Assembly (NCBI GenBank): GCA_977017645.1
Contig: OZ360249.1
Coordinates: 35,092,001 to 35,156,000 of the forward strand
Source of the DNA: Torpedo marmorata
Lineage: Eukaryota
Reading direction: 5' to 3'
Length of the DNA stretch: 64,000 nucleotides
Both the position numbers and the translations under genes were made by a program. The notes under the pieces are model-generated. The model saw nothing but the letters and a program-made list of their open reading frames with translations. It did not search any database and had not been told where the DNA came from. Below, piece after piece: positions 8,224 to 41,870 of the stretch; position 1 is the first letter of the stretch, and every line of letters begins with the position of its first letter.

Positions 8224-10195
8224 CAGAATCAGAATCAGAATTTATTGTCATGAACAAGTCATGAAATTCGGTGTTTTGTGGCAGCATCATAGTGTAAACA
8301 TACATATTATAACCATCTTACGACATTACTATAAAAAACAAAATAAATAATAATGCACGAAAAGTAAGGCAGTGTCTTTGGTTCATTGATTATTCAGGAA
8401 TCTGATGGCAGCGGGGAAGAAGCTGTCCTTGTGCCATTGAGTGCTCGTCTTTAGGCTCTTGTACCTTTTTCCTGATGGTAGCAGAGTGAAGAGGGCATGG
8501 CCTGGGTGGTGGGGGTCTTTGAGGATAGAGGCTGCTTTTTTAAGACACCGCCTCATGTAGATGTTCTTGATGGAGTGAAGTTTGGTGCCTGTGATGTCAC
8601 AGGCCGAGTTAACAACCCTCTGGAGTTTACTCTTGTCCTGAGAGTTGAAGCCTCCATACCAGGCAGTGATGCAACCAGCCAGAATGCACTCCACGGTACA
8701 CCTGTAGAAGCTTACGAGAGTCTTTGATGACATACCGAATCTCCTCAGACACCTCACAAAGTATAGCCGCTGGCGAGCCTTCTTTGTGATTGTATCAATG
8801 TGGAAGCTCCAGGACAGATCCTCGGAGATGCTGACATCCAGGAATTTGAAGTTCTTGACCCTCTCCACTACTGAGCCCTCGATGAGGACTGGGTCATGTT
8901 CCCCTGACTTCCTCTTGAAGTCCACAATCATCTCCTTGGTTTTGCTGACGTTGAGCGCAAGTTTGTTGTCGTTACACGATTCAACGAGCTGATCTATCTC
9001 TCTCCTCTATGCTTCCTCATTGCTGTTTGTGATTCTGCCGACAACTGTGGTGTCATCGGCAAACTTGTAGATGGCATTGGAATTGTGCCTGGCCACACAG
9101 TCATGGGTGTATAACGAGTAGAGCAAAGGGCTAAACACGCATCCTTGGGGTGCGCCTGTGTTGATAATCAGTGAGGAGGAGACGTTGTTTCCAATTCGTA
9201 CTGACTGTGATCTTCCGATGAGAAAGTCAAGGATCCAGTTGCAGAGGGGGGTACAGAGGCATAGAGTTTGTAGCTTCTTGACCAACACTGAGGGAATAAT
9301 GGTATTGAAGGCCGAGCTGCAGTCGATGAAGAACAGCCGTATGTATGAATTGCTGTTTTCGAGGTGATCCAGAGCTGAGTGGAGAGCCAGCGATATTGCA
9401 TCTGCTGTGGAGCGATTGTGATGATAGGCAAATTGCAGTGGGTCCAGATCTTTGCTTAGGTACGTGTTAATTCTGGCCATGACCAGCCTCTCAAAGCATT
9501 TCATCACAGTAGAAGTTAGTGCTGCTGGGCGGTAGTCGTTTTGGCAGCTCACACTACTGTTCTTGGGTACCGGGATGATTGATGCCCTTTTGAAGCAGGT
9601 GGGAACCTCTGACTGCCGCAATGAAAGGTTGAAAATGTCCGTGAACACTCCAGCTAGTTGCTTGGCGCAGATTTTCAGTACCCTGCCAGGTACGCCGTCA
9701 GGGCCTGACGCCTTGCGAGGGTTCACCCTCTTGAATGATGTTCTGACATCGCCCTCAAAGACAGATATCACAGGGTCCTCAGCCTTTTCAGGGATTCTAG
9801 TAGGCACTGTTTTGTTCTTCTTCTCAAAGCGGGCATAGAAGGTGTTCAGCTCATCGGGTAGTGAAGCATCACAACCATCTATAGTTCGCCCTCGCTTTGT
9901 AGGCTGTAATGACCTGCACTCCCTGCCATAGCTGGCGTGTATCTGTCTCTGTCTCTAGCTTCCCCCGGAATTGCCACTTTGCTTCACAGATCGTGCCTGG
10001 ACTTCTTGTAAAGATCCTGTCCTCGGCCTTAAACACCCTGGTTCTCGTCCTCAGCAGGTTGCGAATTCTCTGATTCATCCAGGGCTTCTGGTTGGGGAAC
10101 ACCCGGTATTTGCACGTGGGCACACACTCATCCACGCAGGTCTTAATGAAGTCAGTGACACCTGCTGCATATTCATTCAGGTCTATGGATGAGAT
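8224..10195 (-). mobile_element. Rex1/Babar-clade LINE, 5'-truncated and frameshifted
   Basis: ORFs 9007..9807 (RT: [42 protein letters not shown]) and 8383..8931 (KKARQRLYF.R.LRRFG, DPHHPGHALF). NQKPW motif upstream. The 3' tail is (GATTCT)n, read as aatcag repeats at 8221-8240. Confidence 0.9.
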
Positions 10196-10293
10196 ATTTA
10201 AAATGTTGGCAGATTGGCCGCGATACACCAACAGATGTACTGTAATAGAGATATCAAAGGAATACAAATTTTGTTTCAGACTACACAGTAAAT
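10196..10293 (+). repeat. Right copy of ~98-bp direct repeat flanking the Rex1/Babar LINE
   Basis: atttaaaatgttggcagattggccgcgatacacc...acagtaaat duplicates 8125-8223. Confidence 0.92.
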
Positions 10294-24820: not shown

Positions 24821-27800
24821 ATTCTTCGCCACGATAGGTTTGCAAATTTGCGCTTTTATTGGCAGCGAATAGGGTATGTGCTTCAAGATTCAATGAGACA
24901 TAGTGAAAATGAACCAAACGAATACATTGTTCATTTCGCAATGAAGTCTCCGATTCCTTGATAATGAATAAAGGTACTGTTAATTCGCCTTCTCTGTTAC
25001 ATAATATTGTTTGCCAGTTTTAGAACCACTGATGTTGAGGAATAAAGCTCCACGTTCCAAGATATACAGTATCATGTTTTTTTTACTGCAATTGATATTC
25101 CAAACATTCAATATGTGTTTAGTTGTGCACAATCGAAACAGAGTATGCACAAGGCGCAGAGAAATTTTTGGGGGTAAAATCATGTGTTAAGTACAACTGC
25201 TGTTCAATTTTGCCTGTAGCCCACTCGTCCACGTCTACTCCCAGATTAAAACTAACGTTAGGGAGTTTGACTCCAAACTAAAGGGCCGAATAAATGGACC
25301 TTAAACAGCAACACAAGTTTATTGCCTGTCAGTGAATCAATACTGTTCGCAAAATTCACGGCCCAAGAACATTAAAATAACTTTTCTTTAATCTATCCGC
25401 CAAGTCGTATATTCAAGTGACTTAACGCTCAGAGCGTCCCTTTCTCAAACAACCTATCCCCATTACACTTAAATATGAGATGGCAATCACGAAACAATTC
25501 GAATTGTTTTAAAATATCGAAATGCTCGAAGTGCAGGAAATGGGATCGAGATCTGAACTGGAAATTCTGAGATAGATACCTCGGTGAACTGTGAGGAAAG
25601 GTGACGACTACCTTTGTGAAGCATCGATTATTACTATGTGCAATGGTGTTCTGCTTTGCACTTTACCGCCGGCTTTTATTGTAGTCCCTAAACTCTTGGC
25701 ATGAGGGATATGTTATATCTTCTCCTTACAGCTCTTTGCATCGCCGAAGAAGTAGGTAGTTAAACGGTACACTCATTTCTGTCGGCTGCTATCAGCGATT
25801 TGAATAGTGTTGGTCTTGAATTAAAGGATAAACATAATATTTTAAATAAAGCAATGCAGGACGGTGGCGTCGGGGGGTGGGTGGGGGAGTGGGCGGGGTT
25901 GCGGCTGTTTATCCATCAGACATAAATGCAAAGTTAAAAAGAGTCACTTTGAAACACTTATGTTTAATTATCTTACGAAGCTGATTCGTGCACAAAATCA
26001 TTTCAGGTTTTGGAGCGAGAGAGAAAAAATACTAATTAAATCCAGTATCTGAGGACTGGAGATGTTTGATAACTAAAATCTTCATCAGCAATTTATCTTC
26101 CTGGAACATAATTTTACTGCAAAGCACTGCTTTCATAGCTCTGACGAGTCCTATTAATCTTCTTCACCAAGTTTTCGATAGGAGTCTACAGCTATTTGTG
26201 CCATGTGATCCACGAACATCTAAATTGTCATCTGAAAGGGCAGAAGGGAGATTCCACACAAGCCTACTTCCATTGTACAGTTCGAAGGAGAACACACATA
26301 CAATCGAAACCCGAACCTGTTCAGTTTGAATTGACAAGTGTTCTCCTGTCTCACACCCGTACTATTTTATGTCATATAAATTCCAAACATAGAGAACCAG
26401 TCTCTTCGAATTGGGAACTCGGTGCACGCACCATTGTAGAAAATGCAAAACCAAAAGTTATCATTAGGCTTCGTAAAATTCACTGTATTTGAGAGAAAAC
26501 ATAATAATGCCCCATCAATTGTAATAACTATGTAGAATCAACATATCAGTAAGCAGTTGTATGCAATAGAATCAGGTTATCATTGGGAATATGCAGGAGT
26601 TGGAGATAGGTGGGAGGGAAGGTTATAGTTAGGGCCTGGACCTTTATGTTGCAAACGGACTTTTTCTTAGAGAGAGAGAAAAAAAGCGGTATTTACCCAG
26701 AATATTGTTCCGGTTTATCATAATATGTTGGCAGATGTGTCCACAATTCTTCTGGTAAGACACTTTGTAAAGTATTTAGAATACCAACAAATAAATACAA
26801 AACTTTAAAACTATTGATTTTGCACTGCGTGTGTTAATAATGTTAGGAAAACGAAGTATAAAGAAACTGGTTTGCGTTGAATTACGAAAAAATATCAATG
26901 ACATTATAAATTTGATGTAAAGTTGTAAGGAGATGGAGAATCATTGAGTAACCCTATTGCAATGTCACGGCACAACGGAGTCAAACTTATCTCTTACTAT
27001 TATCACCCTTACAAACTACATCCACTTTGATTGTAAAGAGAAGAGGGAAGGGGAAAGGAAGAGATAGAAAAATGCTGGCGTTCTGCCTAAAGAGAAATCA
27101 TTGAAACAAATTAATCCTTCGCCGGTTAAATTGACATGGCAATCCATCATCGCAGAGCCAGCCTCTGAAAGCAATCTACTGCCTGCGTGTTCTCAGATTG
27201 GCCCTGGGGGCACAGAGACAGATAGAGAAGGTGAGGGGTGGGGGATGGAGTGTAACCTGCACCTTTAAATGAACAACAAAGTGTTTATGGAAGGATGTAA
27301 AAAAAAAGCACACATCGAAGTTAAAGCATCTAAATCAGTGATTAATGAAAGTTAAAACGAGTAGTGATTTGACTGTTCAGGGAGAAATTCAAAGTAGACA
27401 GCAGGTGAAAACGAGCACTGGCTGTTCACTACACCTTACATAAACAATATGGTTATGGTTCTTTGGTTAAGAAAATATGACACAGCCTCAAATCCAGAGT
27501 AGTAAAACAGAATAAGAGTCCAGCGGTTGGATTCGTCTTTAATAAGCAGCAAATAAAAAAAGTGAAATCATGTTTTAAAATGGACAATGAAACACTTAGT
27601 TATCATTGACATGAAAAGAGATGTAGACAAGGGGAGAAAGTCCCATTGATTGACTAATAAATGGAAGGGATAAATTGCTTCGTATAATCCGCATGACGAC
27701 AGTTTGTTCAGAATGGGGGACTGGTGTGAAAGGGGACTGATAACTTATTTAATACTTGGCTGAGCTCTAAACTCTCAGTTAATACTATCTTGCATTTTGG

Positions 27801-30491: not shown

Positions 30492-32011
30492 CTAATAAAA
30501 CAGAGTTAGATGTACAGGCGTTAAACACCTTGAAAATAAGCAGTGTTCACACCATCAATAATTAAAAGATAGTGTAATTATATTAGCGATAAGATTTATG
30601 GCCAAATGCACGAAAGGTCGTTCTCCTTGGTTTGACATTTTACTTGTGATTTTCTTCTTTTTAACATAAATATTTAGCTTGAAAAAGACCGTACTGTCGT
30701 ATACGCTATAGGTATATAGTGTCCAGTGGAAAGGCCTGTATGTGTTGTTTAGGTTCTGATATCTATTGTGCCATTGGAAGTGGCTATATGGAAAAGTGAT
30801 GGAGCGGCTAATACTGGCAAGATTTGGAAGTGCACACGTACTTAATGGTTTAATTGCAGCAGATTCCAACCCGAGAATCCGGAGGGTGAGCAGTATTTAG
30901 CTGCAATCAGGCCAGAAATGTAGCACAAGATTTTTCTCTTGAAAGAGCGCCTATGTGTCCATTGAAGAGCGCTGATCCGAAAAGACAGAGGGGACAAATA
31001 AAAATCGATCTGAAGCGACCCTGGCCGTCCTTTTCACACGATTCACACACAATCCCCTCTCAACTCTACCAAGACAAAGGCCTGGGACCGGAGGGATTCT
31101 CCACAAGCTACAGATACCCTTTTGGAAAACGCGTAGATAATTATATACTGGGCATAAACCACACTGTATAACACCAGATCATCTCAAACCTCAAAGAAAT
31201 ATTTGCTCTTCTGCAAAGCATTCATGGAAGTGGAGACAGGCATTTAGCATTGGGGCAATGGGCGGCTTTTGCATTATAAGTCTGAAACAACTTTATAGAA
31301 GAAACAGAACACAAATAAATTAACTTCGACATTAAGTTCTCCGAATCCCAGCAACCACACAATCGGCTACTATTGGCGAGGGGTAGAGGGTAATATGATA
31401 TATTCCCTCCTCTCCTTGCTAGACTACTCTAGTCGCAGTGTACTTCTGGTTTGCAACTGATGCATGCATTCTGCACTGTTGTCTGTACTTTTGGCCTCCA
31501 TTGCCTTCATCCCGTCCCTCCCCCGAAAAATCCATATATTGGAAACTTTTCTAATAGCGTAGAACTGACCAGAGCAAAGGAGCGAAATTGCGCAGGACAA
31601 GGGGTACTAATCGCTCGGGGGGGTTTAAAAGGCGCGGATCGCATTCCTCTGCACTTTCCCCAATTCGGCGCTATCGAAAGGCCCATAAAGTTAACCGTAA
31701 GATTGGACAAAAGTTAAATTGCAAATCGAAAGTACTTCCCTGGTTTCTGAATATTTATATGAGCCTCTCGCTCTCGCCAAAGGCTACCTTTTTTTTTTAA
31801 TCAGTTTACACTATCGGTCGAGCAAACAGATGACGGTCGATGAAATGAATGATTCTCTTCAATAGGCAAATAGATCAGGTGAGGAGGAGACGAGCCCTCC
31901 CTTCAGTTCACCTGCCAGAAAAAAAGAGATTCATCTCACTCAGTAGTTTCCAACTCGGTTCCGCCAAGATTCTCAACTTCCTGTGTCCAGAGGAGATTCC
32001 AACCCGTCACG

Positions 32012-32063
32012 ATGCAAATAATTTCGGACACTGAACAAAGACAATTGCAAGCAATGATGTTTG
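32012..32063 (+). CDS. NR2F2: Candidate alternative first coding exon of NR2F2 (DBD-less isoform)
   Basis: acgATG start (A at -3), encodes MQIISDTEQRQLQAMMF plus G, then donor G|GTATGT at 32064. The phase-1 end fits exon 2. Resembles the recalled human isoform-b N-terminus MQAVWDLEQGKYGF. Confidence 0.65.
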
Positions 32064-33207
32064 GTATGTTTTTAATAAATATATATGTTTCTACTTTTGT
32101 TTACTTAATCGAGGGAAATACGCTTTTCTTGATCAAAACATGATCGTTCTTAAACACCTGTATTAATTAATCTATATTATGTTGACACGAAGCAGGTTTT
32201 GAATTTCAACACATGCTGTACTTTGTAGCCAATTGAATATCCGTCAAAACAATTAAAGTTTTTGCTTTAATTATTTCTAGATTTAATGGGGAAAAATCAC
32301 TAAATCAAGCTCGGGTTCTCGTTCTGATGAATTTGATAATCTACTCCCCGGTTCTTATGTTCCGCATAGTTATGTACGTGTTTCCAAATGTAATAGCGAT
32401 CGGAAATTGAATCGAACCGTGAATGGGTTACAGTGTCGCACGATGGTGTAATATTAGGGACTATGTAATAGAAACATCAGAAATAAACATGTTTGCCGAC
32501 CTCTAAATAAAGCTAAGGGTCCCAGAAACCTTTCTCAAGCGGTTGCCCGTCGAGTCCGCAGAAATCCACAGCCCCTGTCCCGTGTTTCAATGAATTAGAT
32601 TTGTTTATTCATTCATTGCTAAATTGCTGTGTAATACTGCTTTGATTTACAACGCTGTATATCGCCGGCGAGCTCATTAAAAAAAAAACTTGTGCATTAA
32701 AATAAGAAAACAGTTTGAATCGCCGCAAATGAGCGAGTAAACGCTGCTACAATCAACAGATTTAATTTGAACTGTGTATTAGAAATTGGTACTCACCACT
32801 TTTATTTAGATCCAGAAACGCATCTGATGATTTTTTTTTGTGGGAAAATAAATGTTTATTTATTTGAGGGGCGAAGCAGCGGGTTCGATTTGGCAATACT
32901 GCTTCAGATGAATCGTTTTAGAGAGGGGAAAGTCTATTAGCAATCGGTTGTTTTTGAAATAAGACCAATTCCAGGCACCTAAGCCAACCCATACGTCCAG
33001 GCAGATCTAGAAAAAAAAACAAAGCGACGGAGATCACGCAGTCCCGCTCAGCAACGTCCAAGTCAATTAGAGAAAAATCCTAAAGAATTAATCACATTAA
33101 AGGTGCAGAAGTTTTTTTTCGGGGTATAAAGGACGCGTTGTGAGCGAGGAGGCGCCGCGATCCCTTTGAATGGCTTTGCTGCTCCAGAGTTCTACAGCGA
33201 CACTCCA

Positions 33208-33224: not shown

Positions 33225-35981
33225 AGATACTGTACAAGATTTTGACAAATTCTCCAGCATATGCTGCGATTTAGCACTGTAAATTTTTCAGAAGCCCGCT
33301 GCACTGACAGCTCCCGGCGGTTATCAAAGTGCCACAAGTCACCGCTTAAAAACTGCAATGACTTTGAGATCACCGGGACACAATGGGAACCACTTTCCCT
33401 ATTCATTGTGTTGAAATGTCGTGAGAGAGAAAAAAAAAACAGGGCGAATTCACAGGGAACTCAAATTCAATAGATCTAGCTGGTTATCAGTGTACAACTG
33501 GGAAGCAAGTGGCATCTAGTTTGTGTTATAAATAACCATGCCACGGTTAGCATACAACACAATATTAATTTAACAAATCCTATACACCGCCATCCTTGGA
33601 AATGATTTAAACTCCGACTGAATGGTTTCTGATTGTCGCTCTCGTTGGTTCGGAGTAGCTCAAACTTACTTTTGAAATTATCACAAAGTATTACCTTGCT
33701 GTCATTAAAAATAAACAACGATTCAATTTTGCTCCACAAACCATGTTTCAAAATGTTGCCTTCATTTCTTAAAAGGGCCTTTGGCAACGCCACCCTTGGC
33801 TAGTTAACAGTGATATTATTGACACGTTTAATTACGAACAAAAGATATTCATTTCATATTTCTCCAAACTCTAGTTTCTCGACTTATCTCCTCAAAATTA
33901 TTTATTTTTGCATAACTAATTTAAACTGTTCAATTTAAAACCCCGTGCACTTTTTTTTTTGCAACGTGCAACATATATTGCTTTAGATGCTAGACTGGAG
34001 GTTGTGTCCTTTCTTTGCTGAACCATGTGAGCGATTGCATTGTGAAATGGACATTGCAAGGAAAATAAGTTGATTTACCTACAAGTAAACACATCATGTG
34101 TTAGAGATTTTAATCATTTCCTTTAATTGTAAGGACTCCACTGAGGAACTGTACCTATATACAATGTGCATTCGAATAGAATTCTGTAGTAAGGTCAGTA
34201 TAGAGAGAAAACATTATATTATCAAAGTAACGGTATTTAAGGTACTACCCATTGGACTTTAAAGGAACACCTGTTTAATGCACTCTACCCAGGGTCATGT
34301 ATTATATACTTGAACGGGTGTAATTTCGTATTTTATATATAAATTGCGTAACAATGCAATCATCGATAAGCGTGAGAATTTCTGAATATTCCCGGTAACG
34401 CATTCTATGAATTTTGAAAACATGTATAATGTGTGCATGATACATCTAAAAAAATGCTTTAAAGTACATATATATTAAAGTATATACTTCTTTGGTTAAA
34501 AACGTGAAATGCGCAGTTACAATTCATCTGGAGCGGACTTCTAACAGCACGCAGCTTCCCACAATCATACATTTTCTCCATACACTCATTCAATTCCATG
34601 TACTGATTTAGTATACTGGAAGAATTTGGCTAAGTATTAATTGCTGCAATTAAATATAACACATAATGCGGCCAGACTCGCCAAAAGAATTCAATTTACG
34701 TGAGTCTTTATATTTCTCATGACAAAATTTGTCAAATCTGCTCTGTTGAAACGTCAATTTCCCAGTTAATTTTAGTAGTACTGCCAACAGAGTAACCCAT
34801 CCAGCCCAGAGTGACCACTGAATATAACGTGGCATAAATAAAATATCGCCCACCCGAAGTAAATACACGATACATTGAAATATTTTATTATGGAAGGACA
34901 AGGGAGAAAGTGGTATCGCAGCAACCCCACTCCAAAAAATCGTCAGTACACAGTTTTGAGGATTTTTATGCAATNNNNNNNNNNNNNNNNNNNNNNNNNN
35001 NNNNNNNNNNNNNNNNNNNNNNNNNNNNNNNNNNNNNNNNNNNNNNNNNNNNNNNNNNNNNNNNNNNNNNNNNNNNNNNNNNNNNNNNNNNNNNNNNNNN
35101 NNNNNNNNNNNNNNNNNNNNNNNNNNNNNNNNNNNNNNNNNNNNNNNTATCTAGATAACCAGTTACACGCGCAGTACAAAACTCTTTTCACATTTTAGTA
35201 TTTCAAAGTAAACACATTATTTATCTGAATTAATAATGGTTCATCAGATGAATGAGACCCTTTCGAATATTCATAGCTTTTCTAAGACAAGATACCCTGT
35301 GGAACGCACAGAAACTATTATTCTCCATAAACTTGCAATAGCTGATTTTTGACATCACTTTACCTCATTGTATTTGGACGTTTTCATGAAAATTCATCAT
35401 AACCCTCGCTACCGTTAGGATGTCCCAATGAAATAAAATAGCATCGCCCGCCAGTGGTACATCTTCAGCATCAACTTCTGTCCTTGATAAAACTGAAGCG
35501 ATTTAAAAAAAAGATGGTATTGATTGTTCAGGAAAACACTTCTCATAGAACCTATGAAATTTATATACACATTATTAGGCATATTGTAAACTCAGAAGTA
35601 GTTTCTTTAATAATGTCAAATATATTCTTCATATATCAAATTTATTTTTCCACAAGACACGCCTGTATAAATAATTTTAATTAGGACTATTCAATATTTA
35701 TTGTTGCATGAGCTTGCCGAGTCTTTTATTGCATATCCTTTGTGAGATTATTTCATATTATCTATATATTAATTTTATCTATATACGGCTCATTTGTGAT
35801 AGTTGCATTTATAAAATCTACTATTCCCCAATGCTACCCATCCTTCCAGATTTTAATGAAAATTGGAGGTGGTGATGGTGGGGGGATAAAAAACTTATTT
35901 TTCGAAGTGGACCTTTGCGCATGGATTTAATGTAAATTTGTTGCCGGCCAGGATGTTCTAGATAATAAGTAAGGTGCCTAT

Positions 35982-36170
35982 CCAATGCGGTGCAGGGGGC
36001 GGGCCAGATGTCCCAGCCCCTCGAACCTAAAGCTCTGACCAGTCGCCTTTGATTGTCAGTCGCCAGCAGCCGCCGCTTGGCTCCGTCACTCGGCAGCGCC
36101 ATATAAGGAAAGCATCTCCATAGAAACGTGTCAGTTTCAATAGTCGTGTCAAAGTTCACTATATACAGCC
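35982..36170 (+). promoter_or_regulatory. NR2F2: NR2F2 proximal promoter
   Basis: CCAAT 35982-35986, GC box ggggcggg 35996-36003, CArG CCATATAAGG 36099-36108, DR1 GTGTCA-A-AGTTCA 36146-36158 and TATATA 36160-36165. The DR1-next-to-TATA layout is known from mammalian COUP-TF promoters. Confidence 0.85.
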
Positions 36171-36189
36171 ATCCGCGCAGATTTCCCCT

Positions 36190-36638
36190 TTCAGAAAAAT
36201 TACTCCGCAAGCCCGCTCGTTCAAATCGGATTCACTTCCAACCCCCTTTTGCATATTTGATCAGTTTGATTCTCTCTCTCTTCCTTTTTTTGCCTCCTCT
36301 CGCATGAGAGAGGTTTCTATAGCTCTCCCTTTTTCACGACGTCGACTCTTTTTTTTTGTAGTCTCTTTTGCTGGCGAGTTGTTGACTCTCATCGTGTGTA
36401 TGTGCAGTTCCAGCACTACCAGTACGGCGGAGAATTTATGATCAGTTGATGGTCGGGCACTTCTACTCCGGATCGTGCATCTGTCTGCAAGAGTCGATCT
36501 TTTTTTTTGTTTTCAATCTTTAACCTTTCGTTTCCCTTCTTCCTTTTTTGATGGGTTTCCTGAATGGCTGACTGCGTGCTACCCTGGTCTTGGCCCCCCG
36601 ACACTCACCTCCTCTCTGCCGATCGGGCTTGAACTGCT

Positions 36639-36837: not shown

Positions 36838-37249
36838 ATGGCAATGGTAGTTAGTACGTGGCGAGACCCGCAGGACGACGTGGCCGGAGCGCAGGGCACA
36901 CAGCCACCCCCGCCTCAGCAAGGACCGCAACAGCCTTCTGGAGCACCCCTTACCCCGCAGACCCCGGGCCAGCCGGGAGCCCCGGGTACCCCGGCCCAGT
37001 CCAACCAACAGCAAGGCGAGAAACAGCAGCAGCACATCGAGTGTGTGGTATGCGGGGACAAATCGAGCGGCAAACACTACGGCCAGTTCACCTGCGAAGG
37101 CTGCAAGAGTTTCTTTAAAAGAAGTGTGCGCAGAAACCTGACGTACACATGTCGTGCCAACAGGAACTGCCCCATAGACCAACACCACCGCAATCAGTGT
37201 CAGTACTGTCGCCTGAAAAAATGCCTCAAAGTCGGCATGAGACGGGAAG
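36838..37249 (+). CDS. NR2F2: COUP-TFII exon 1 (N-terminus and C4 zinc-finger DNA-binding domain)
   Basis: [13 protein letters not shown]...[34 protein letters not shown]...KVGMRRE. Donor G|GTATTG at 37250, phase 1. Confidence 0.97.
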
Positions 37250-37975: not shown

Positions 37976-38587
<612 letters not shown>

Positions 38588-39811: not shown

Positions 39812-40192
<381 letters not shown>

Positions 40193-41870
40193 ATAGGATG
40201 GGGAAAAAAAGGCAAGTGACATTATTTTGCAAATTCCTTCTGTCAAGAAGGAAATAAAAGGCTGTTACAAGTTTACCTATGTGACACAAAAAATTGAAGA
40301 GAGGGAAGAATAAAAAGGACTGTGGATTTCAATGACTGTACACGAACTAAAAAAAACGCATTCAAAAACTCTCCTGTATCGTTCAGAACAACTTGCTACT
40401 TATCATTTTGTAACGAAAGGAATTTAGTCTTTTATTTTGGTTTATTTTGTAAACTTTTGAGAAATATCGATATAAAGATAAGTGCATTTAAACAAGAATT
40501 TCAAAATTAGAAGGAAAGAAAAATAACATTTTCCAAATTATTATAAATTGTCCGGTGTCTATGTATCTATAGCTGTTTTGTATTTTTCCTGGTTTCAAAC
40601 CAGTCTCCTATGTGATTCTCTACTAATAATTTTGATATAACCATTGCTTCTTATCAGATACGGTGTATCACGTAAATATGTTCTGCAAGAATTAAAACTG
40701 AATCCGCTAAAATGTTAGATGAAAAGGTTTTTTTTACAGAATTGCAACTTAATGCTGGAAGCGCACTTATAGTGTTAACTCGAAAGACGTTTAATTTGGG
40801 GGAAATTGACTGCAGACCAATATTAAATGATACACACTTGTAATTTAAAAATCCATTGTTGAAAACTCGTTAATATTGACATGTGGGGGAGGGGGCGGGA
40901 GTATAATGTGGGTATATATATCTGAAAGCAAAAATATTTGATGTGTCCAAGACACAGTGCAATTTTTTTTCATTAAATTTACGTGGCTCGATTTAGTTCC
41001 TGTTGCAGTATAGAATCGTACGAGGCTCCAAAACATGCCCGTTTTTGTATATTTCCCATCCATTTGTAACAATTATAAATCCTTCGCCCTTTTAAAGGAA
41101 AAAAAAATACCGCAATTTCTTTTCTTGGATTCAGCATGGAACTCTATGTCGGCACTTACTATTTGACATGTGGTTAATTAAGTATCTGGAGTTTACAGTC
41201 GTGTATACAAACTGAAGGGTTTTTTAAGTGCAAATTTTCTGTACTGTAAAAGTTCTGATTGGATTGTTTGGTCAGTCTTGTGTGTTATATTCAAAAAAAA
41301 TGAAAGTATTCGGAGATTATAATATCATTTGATATATGGAACTTTTCGCTGTTACAATTGTATGTTCACCCAAGGGAAAAAAATCTCATTACATTGGTCA
41401 AACATCGCAGTTTACTGGAGTCATTACAATTCGTGCATTATTTGTCTTATTTACTCTATATACCTGTATAGTTTACTGCCACAGTCTGTAGTAGTGGACA
41501 AACTACATGCGTTTTCAATGAAAGGCTAAATCGTGGATTCATGCTGCTCCTTGCTTTTAGGTTTTAGCAATGACACCCTAAAGATACTGTCACATGGCCC
41601 CTGTACTTACACGTTGTACCCCTTCCTTTTAAAATTCAAAATGCCACGGGGATTTTGACCACCGACCCTTATTTTGTTCTAACTTAAGTGCCTGTGCAAC
41701 CAATGTACATTAGACAGGTGTTAGGAAGCATGGATCATTATGTGTTTTAATGGTCAGGACTTTGTTTTGAAGCTTATTGTGTCTAAAGTTCACGCACAGA
41801 ACACACTTAAACAAGCAATTGCTACTAGGAACAGTGTTGATTGTAAATAAAATATATTAAATGAGATTTA
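40193..41870 (+). other. NR2F2: Predicted NR2F2 3' UTR
   Basis: AU-rich with miRNA seed matches. Candidate AATAAA at 41846-41851 and another at 42029-42034. The true end is uncertain. Confidence 0.55.

Follow-up and report, generated by a model that had tools for sequence, protein, structure and literature searches.

The window, that is, the whole 64,000-nucleotide stretch of Torpedo marmorata DNA analysed here (contig OZ360249.1, positions 35,092,001 to 35,156,000), carries the gene NR2F2 (COUP-TFII) on its forward strand, together with an alternative first exon that lies upstream of the main one. The main product, of 404 amino acids, is read from the ATG at 36838 through a first exon (coding part 36838..37249), exon 2 (38031..38558) and exon 3 (coding part 39918..40192), which supplies the end of the ligand-binding domain and the stop at 40192. 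The first exon holds the A/B region and both zinc fingers, with the family search placing PF00105 entirely within it, and exon 2, which is common to both forms, holds the hinge and most of the ligand-binding domain (PF00104, from exon 2 onward). The gene thus combines a C4 zinc-finger exon with a nuclear receptor ligand-binding domain that matches PDB 3CJW, and it is nearest to NR2F2 as against NR2F1, NR2F5 and NR2F6; NR2F1 (C2) and an NR2F5-like gene (C54) are separate loci elsewhere in the genome. Over the first 70 residues, which correspond to the A/B region, identity reaches 100% with a Narcine NR2F2 record, 96% with a Logan protein grouped with Amblyraja records (the skate cluster) and 90% with a Callorhinchus record, as against at most 65% over the whole stretch for the other NR2F2 matches.

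Several further features of the locus were recorded. A second acceptor 21 nt 5' of exon 2 (38010-38030) would add seven residues after the zinc fingers; rays, birds and Xenopus have annotated forms of this longer kind, which may be another old variant. A donor consensus at 40106/40107, within exon 3, falls at the same point where many annotated NR2F1 and NR2F2 forms exchange the last helix for other C-termini. A Callorhinchus NR2F2 model (P0204) keeps the A/B region and splices out of exon 1 within the first zinc finger, which is another route to the loss of DNA binding. On the minus strand, positions 8225-10207 hold a broken retroelement of the reverse-transcriptase type, of which a 92% identical copy sits in the NR2F5-like locus.

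The coding tail of the NR2F2 alternative first exon occupies 32012..32063 on the + strand. These 52 nt comprise a 17-codon open leader, which begins with the ATG at 32012 and has A at -3, and the first base of the junction codon, and they are followed by the 5' splice site GTATGT (32064..32069). The ATG lies 4,826 nt above the main ATG at 36838, the phase of 1 at 32063 fits exon 2 at 38031, and the joining of 32012-32063 to exon 2 onward gives a product of 284 amino acids in frame. An earlier analysis, hereafter the sequence-only reading, had proposed the exon from its letters, and its start codon, open codons, GTATGT, spacing of 4.8 kb, phase and product length were all confirmed, as was its claim of a product without zinc fingers, since the join bypasses the main first exon that holds PF00105. 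It had also called the donor strong. By a rough matrix this site scores 1.69 bits, a value equalled or exceeded by 145 of the 3,482 GT sites in the window, and it is better described as a modest consensus; by the same matrix the donor of exon 2 scores 7.84 bits and that of the main exon 1 scores 0.36 bits. Over the 36.8 kb upstream of the main ATG, nine candidates show an ATG-to-GT pattern of phase 1 that has a purine at -3 and a donor scoring at least as well. The bare pattern is within chance expectation, and this exon is raised above chance by the leader match together with the spliced contigs.

The spliced contigs were obtained from assembled sequencing runs. The run search matched 24 runs from 10 organisms with shares of 0.05-0.19; none of them is on record as RNA, their types being guessed, and none comes from the window's species, and the search result by itself was not counted as evidence. 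Eight runs, one per organism and all from relatives, were aligned to 31400-32500 with identities mostly of 90-98%. Five of them (X1, X2, X15, X19 and X22, representing five organisms and five studies) join position 32063 to the start of exon 2, and the sequence after the join agrees with 38031-38059 in 28 of 29 letters, the lone difference being at a third codon position. All seven runs that cover the 3' part of the exon break off at 32063 and none enters the intron. Run X4 ends exactly there, with no onward sequence, and run X18 covers 31434-31494 only, outside the coding tail. In run X7, position 32063 is joined to another sequence, whose best ungapped match in the window carries 11 mismatches in 30 letters and which has no match in the genome at three mismatches; this could be a lineage-specific cassette exon.

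The evidence consists of contigs with just 29 letters past the join, and run X15 is flagged as 'probably DNA'. A tail of 29 letters together with the shared last G is what would be expected of a 31-letter assembly graph in which two first exons share one acceptor. The join in X15 needs either RNA or a retrocopy, and a genome search found the alternative-exon stretch as a single copy, with no retrocopy in the window's genome, so that a retrocopy is unsupported despite the flag. The junction foreseen by the sequence-only reading is therefore found in five of the eight assemblies, all of them from relatives and none from the window's own species; for the latter we infer the join from its intact signals (ATG, frame and GT). 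It could be argued that a chance ATG...GT pattern or an assembly artefact was picked up and that the window's species has no real exon here, given the nine similar candidates and the provenance of the runs, which come from relatives and whose types are guessed. With an exact exon-exon join in five organisms and five studies, a single-copy stretch, and intact ATG, frame and GT in the window, this explanation is already largely refuted and hardly credible.

The contigs also determine what kind of exon this is. The minimum extent of the alternative first exon is 31659..32063, with the seven covering runs all ending at 32063; the contigs run from 31659 or 31684 to 32063, and one starts at 31430, which makes the exon at least 380-630 nt long, or about 400 nt or more. 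The sequence-only reading had described a micro-exon. That label was rejected, because contigs extending 380-630 nt in the 5' direction show no upstream join, and the structure is a first exon that is coding only in a short tail. Contigs begin at 31659, 31679, 31684, 31769, about 31720, or further up (31430), and a TATA-like element at 31624..31632 (+ strand) lies some 30-55 nt above the start of three of them (31659, 31679 and 31684). This element is a possible core promoter; X4 and X19 extend further upstream than these starts, and contig starts cannot prove a transcription start. Low-depth contigs above the element (31430-31600) occur in X1, X4 and X18, and may reflect a further start site or antisense RNA. 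The observed/expected CpG ratio rises from 0.14-0.43 in 1-24000 to 0.64-0.92 in 24000-64000, where matches to mobile elements are also thinner, and this shift is read as a broad unmethylated domain surrounding the gene; the ratio is high over the whole of 24-64 kb and does not single out the alternative exon.

The leader peptide was then compared with those of short NR2F2 forms in bony vertebrates, which were found through a search with exon 2 and the reading of cluster members. A leader of 14 residues is annotated in primates, dog, meerkat, bats, birds, turtles, lizards, frogs, a caecilian and reedfish, and a diverged leader of 13 residues in teleosts; all of them end at the same junction and in the same phase as the leader of the window. 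The leader that the sequence-only reading had given for human isoform b is carried in exactly that form by simian, dog and meerkat records. Scoring used 11 leaders, weighted as tetrapod, bichir and teleost, which were chosen by the analyst because they recur in several lineages; the reference excluded nine further leaders that are annotated for NR2F2 short forms, including a coelacanth record, and are dissimilar to that of the window. On this scale the window leader comes top of the 567 candidate mini-exons of the + strand and also of all 1,938 candidates from four sequence sets (score 12.7; next 10.0). Shuffling reached its score once in 20,000 trials with M fixed and 19 times in 20,000 with both M and F fixed. 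The residues kept between ray, bichir and tetrapods are M-Q, an acidic residue at position 6, E-Q at 8-9 and the last F, which bears out the alignment of M-Q, E-Q and terminal F first proposed, and the bichir leader has M-Q and E-Q-R at the same places as the window leader. Leader lengths vary by whole codons (13, 14 and 17).

These likenesses could still be coincidental if the ray and bony-vertebrate exons arose independently, because any upstream exon with a phase-1 donor skips the DNA-binding domain. The short forms of NR2F2 and NR2F1 have been annotated with many unrelated leaders, identities amount to just 5-7 over 14-17 residues, and teleost leaders align poorly to that of the window (scores 0-10). 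Against a chance likeness stand the first rank among 1,938 candidates with a shuffle p of about 0.001 or less, the fact that the same candidate is the spliced one, and the position of the mammalian exon, which also lies upstream of the main promoter (PMC7016888, PMC10073109). Moreover, the candidate with its donor at 32064 was picked before any transcript data were available, and its appearance in spliced contigs counts against coincidence. Independent origin is accordingly considered very unlikely, and orthology with mammalian isoform 2/b is likely from the sequence comparison. As the same type of leader is found in amphibians, in bichir and, diverged, in teleosts, and the join is found in cartilaginous relatives, the short form probably dates to the ancestor of all jawed vertebrates, before the split between cartilaginous and bony fishes, as the sequence-only reading had suggested.

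The conservation of the start codon is less straightforward. The ATG is kept in the window and in five of the seven organisms covering it, and is replaced by ACG in the other two, where base 32013 reads C (runs X19 and X22, from organisms I and J of two studies, at depths of 31 and 45). The coding tail of X19 and X22 shows no other listed change or indel, one difference per contig near the end of a piece being unlisted, and across the seven organisms no indel is listed in the 52 coding bases. The expectation that ATG and frame would be conserved in relatives is thus borne out for the frame and the join and fails for the ATG in two organisms. Substitutions number 0 in 52 bases of the coding tail versus 13 in 333 of the untranslated region (p = 0.23, a test without power). 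When the unspliced frame of 43 codons that begins at 32012 was used as a protein query, none of the three candidates scored. Five upstream ATGs (31759, 31830, 31840, 31845 and 31849, thus 31759..31851, + strand) are out of frame with the leader, and the last of them, at 31849, opens a frame of 61 codons that overlaps the leader start and is lost in relatives through indels at 31899 and 31916-31918. Codons 15 and 16 of the leader are also ATGs in the same frame (32054 and 32057), from which products of 270 and 269 amino acids would start, and an in-frame ATG within exon 2 would give a 261-residue product with the same domain. The leader may be dispensable in some lineages because starts at 32012, at codons 15-16 or in exon 2 all give the same domain. 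Taken together, the ATG loss, the UTR-like conservation and the upstream ATGs suggest modest, regulated translation and a dispensable leader, and the conserved unit is likely the ligand-binding-domain-only product rather than the leader.

The same observations feed the main rival explanation, according to which the exon and its join are ancient and selection acts on the DNA element or on the act of transcription (as a promoter or enhancer within the NR2F2 regulatory block, an antisense RNA, or a decoy laden with upstream frames), with little short protein being made. The untranslated part is conserved about as well as the coding tail, the ATG is lost in two of seven organisms beside a cluster of upstream ATGs, the locus has many conserved non-coding blocks, some of them common to NR2F1, and the short forms make up a low share in human gonad-like cells, where the main form is about 1000-fold above the short form (PMC10768475). 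Nonetheless, M-Q, the acidic residue at 6, E-Q at 8-9 and F are kept despite length shifts by whole codons, which points to selection on frame and peptide, and the short protein has been seen by western blot in human cells (PMC10073109, PMC5785710). This explanation is therefore regarded as unlikely.

To look for a deeper history, the window was compared with 40 kb of the NR2F1 locus (33.7 kb above NR2F1). Five non-coding matches occur in the same order in both loci, at window positions 27071 (about 85% over 88 nt), 30953 (66% over 87), 31797 (62% over 90), 33208 (21/23) and 35924 (75% over 395). The third lies inside the alternative exon (31797..31886, + strand, 56 of 90 identical) and closes with a strong match to the donor consensus at 31879, which scores 8.11 and 7.25 bits in the NR2F2 and NR2F1 loci, respectively, and is read through by the NR2F2 contigs. 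Under strict alignment this 90-nt block was reached by none of 1,000 shuffles and none of 80 other tiles. Its score was reached by 3 of 360 natural control tiles after masking and 16 of 360 before, so that the match is only a hint; a loose-scoring alignment of the exon region to the paralogues did no better than shuffles, and no similar block was found in the NR2F5-like locus. Matches to the leader profile in the NR2F1 locus (10.0, intron 1) were rejected as they have no plausible donor, and the four-residue leader of amniote NR2F1 had no match in the 33.7 kb above NR2F1 in this genome. DNA-binding-less NR2F1 forms are annotated in amniotes, and a 263-residue NR2F1 form has a UniRef group labelled Gnathostomata. 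It is possible, if rather doubtful, that the upstream exon predates the genome duplication by which NR2F1 and NR2F2 became separate, with a leader that drifts or vanishes and a ligand-binding-domain-only product that is kept. If that were true, vertebrate COUP-TF (and neural-crest) control would have had, as an ancestral component, an inbuilt modulator isoform with its own switch. Two other observations came from this comparison: 27071-27158 and 30953-31039, with L011:7489-7568 and L011:1272-1357, are duplicated NR2F2/NR2F1 non-coding elements, 86% and 66% alike, and candidate ancient enhancers, and the promoter/5' UTR (35924-36310) and the 3' UTR (40400-40697) are 74-75% alike between NR2F2 and NR2F1.

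The nearest known system is isoform 2 of human and mouse NR2F2 (variant 2, isoform b, COUP-TFII V2), which likewise has an upstream first exon joined to exon 2, loses the A/B region and the zinc fingers, and keeps the ligand-binding domain intact behind a related short leader. Unlike it, the form described here has a leader of 17 residues rather than 14 and two extra in-frame ATGs, its start codon is lost in two relatives of the window, and the fish form is a predicted protein. The 281-residue NR2F2 forms of bichir/reedfish, amphibians, reptiles and birds and the 13-residue teleost leaders share junction and phase, and are automated predictions. NR2F2 isoform c and the NR2F1 short forms (261-273 amino acids) are also ligand-binding-domain-only products of upstream exons, but they start inside exon 2 or have an unrelated four-residue leader. 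DNA-binding-less receptors such as SHP/DAX1 of NR0B and the insect E75B and DHR3S act by dimerisation or cofactor competition, and are separate genes or of independent origin in other subfamilies.

The exon had been called hidden, which does not hold outside mammals, where automated annotations already include the short form for bony fishes. No cartilaginous-fish record of it was found among the 15 of 136 cluster members listed, and an automated chondrichthyan model may well be present among the remaining 121. A search of the openly readable literature found no paper on a short NR2F2 form in cartilaginous fishes; the main text of a family-wide evolutionary study does not use 'isoform', 'variant' or 'truncated' (PMC8608329), and a review mentions the short form for no species but mouse and human, and describes its mode of action as unknown (PMC7016888). 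The short form itself was thus familiar from mammals, and pipelines had predicted it for bony vertebrates; what is new is its probable greater age and its presence in cartilaginous fishes.

We therefore favour, with a probability of about 0.7, the reading that the upstream exon is the orthologue of that of mammalian isoform 2/b, and that its predicted product, confined to ligand binding and dimerisation, likely pairs with the full-length receptor and thereby modulates it. The short transcript would start from a promoter of its own near 31.6 kb, and on it ribosomes would pass several upstream ATGs and start at 32012 (284 amino acids), at codons 15-16 (270/269) or in exon 2 (261). The product, hinge plus ligand-binding domain, would be unable to bind DNA alone, and by analogy with mammals it may pair with the full-length receptor and move cofactor use up or down by context; the upstream promoter would then be a second, separately regulated dial on COUP-TFII activity. 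In mammals, variant 2 encodes isoform b without a DNA-binding domain (PMC5785710), and isoform 2 physically interacts with isoform 1 and, depending on context, raises or lowers its output; it is expressed in neural crest and stem cells, is silenced by methylation in melanocytes and is re-expressed in metastatic melanoma (PMC10073109). The suggestion of the sequence-only reading that the short form is potentially dominant-negative covers one side of this and is too narrow, as both enhancement and inhibition are described depending on cell and target (PMC7016888, PMC10073109).

The finding that the exon is spliced in cartilaginous fishes has several consequences. It likely dates the short form to the jawed-vertebrate ancestor and speaks against its being a by-product in mammals or a transcript restricted to cancer. 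That ancestor lived over 400 million years ago. A developmental role of the short form becomes testable in zebrafish, frog and skate, and knockouts of exon 1, which spare the short form, call for caution in the reading of such mutants. Finally, the natural loss of the ATG suggests that it is the domain that matters, and not the leader.
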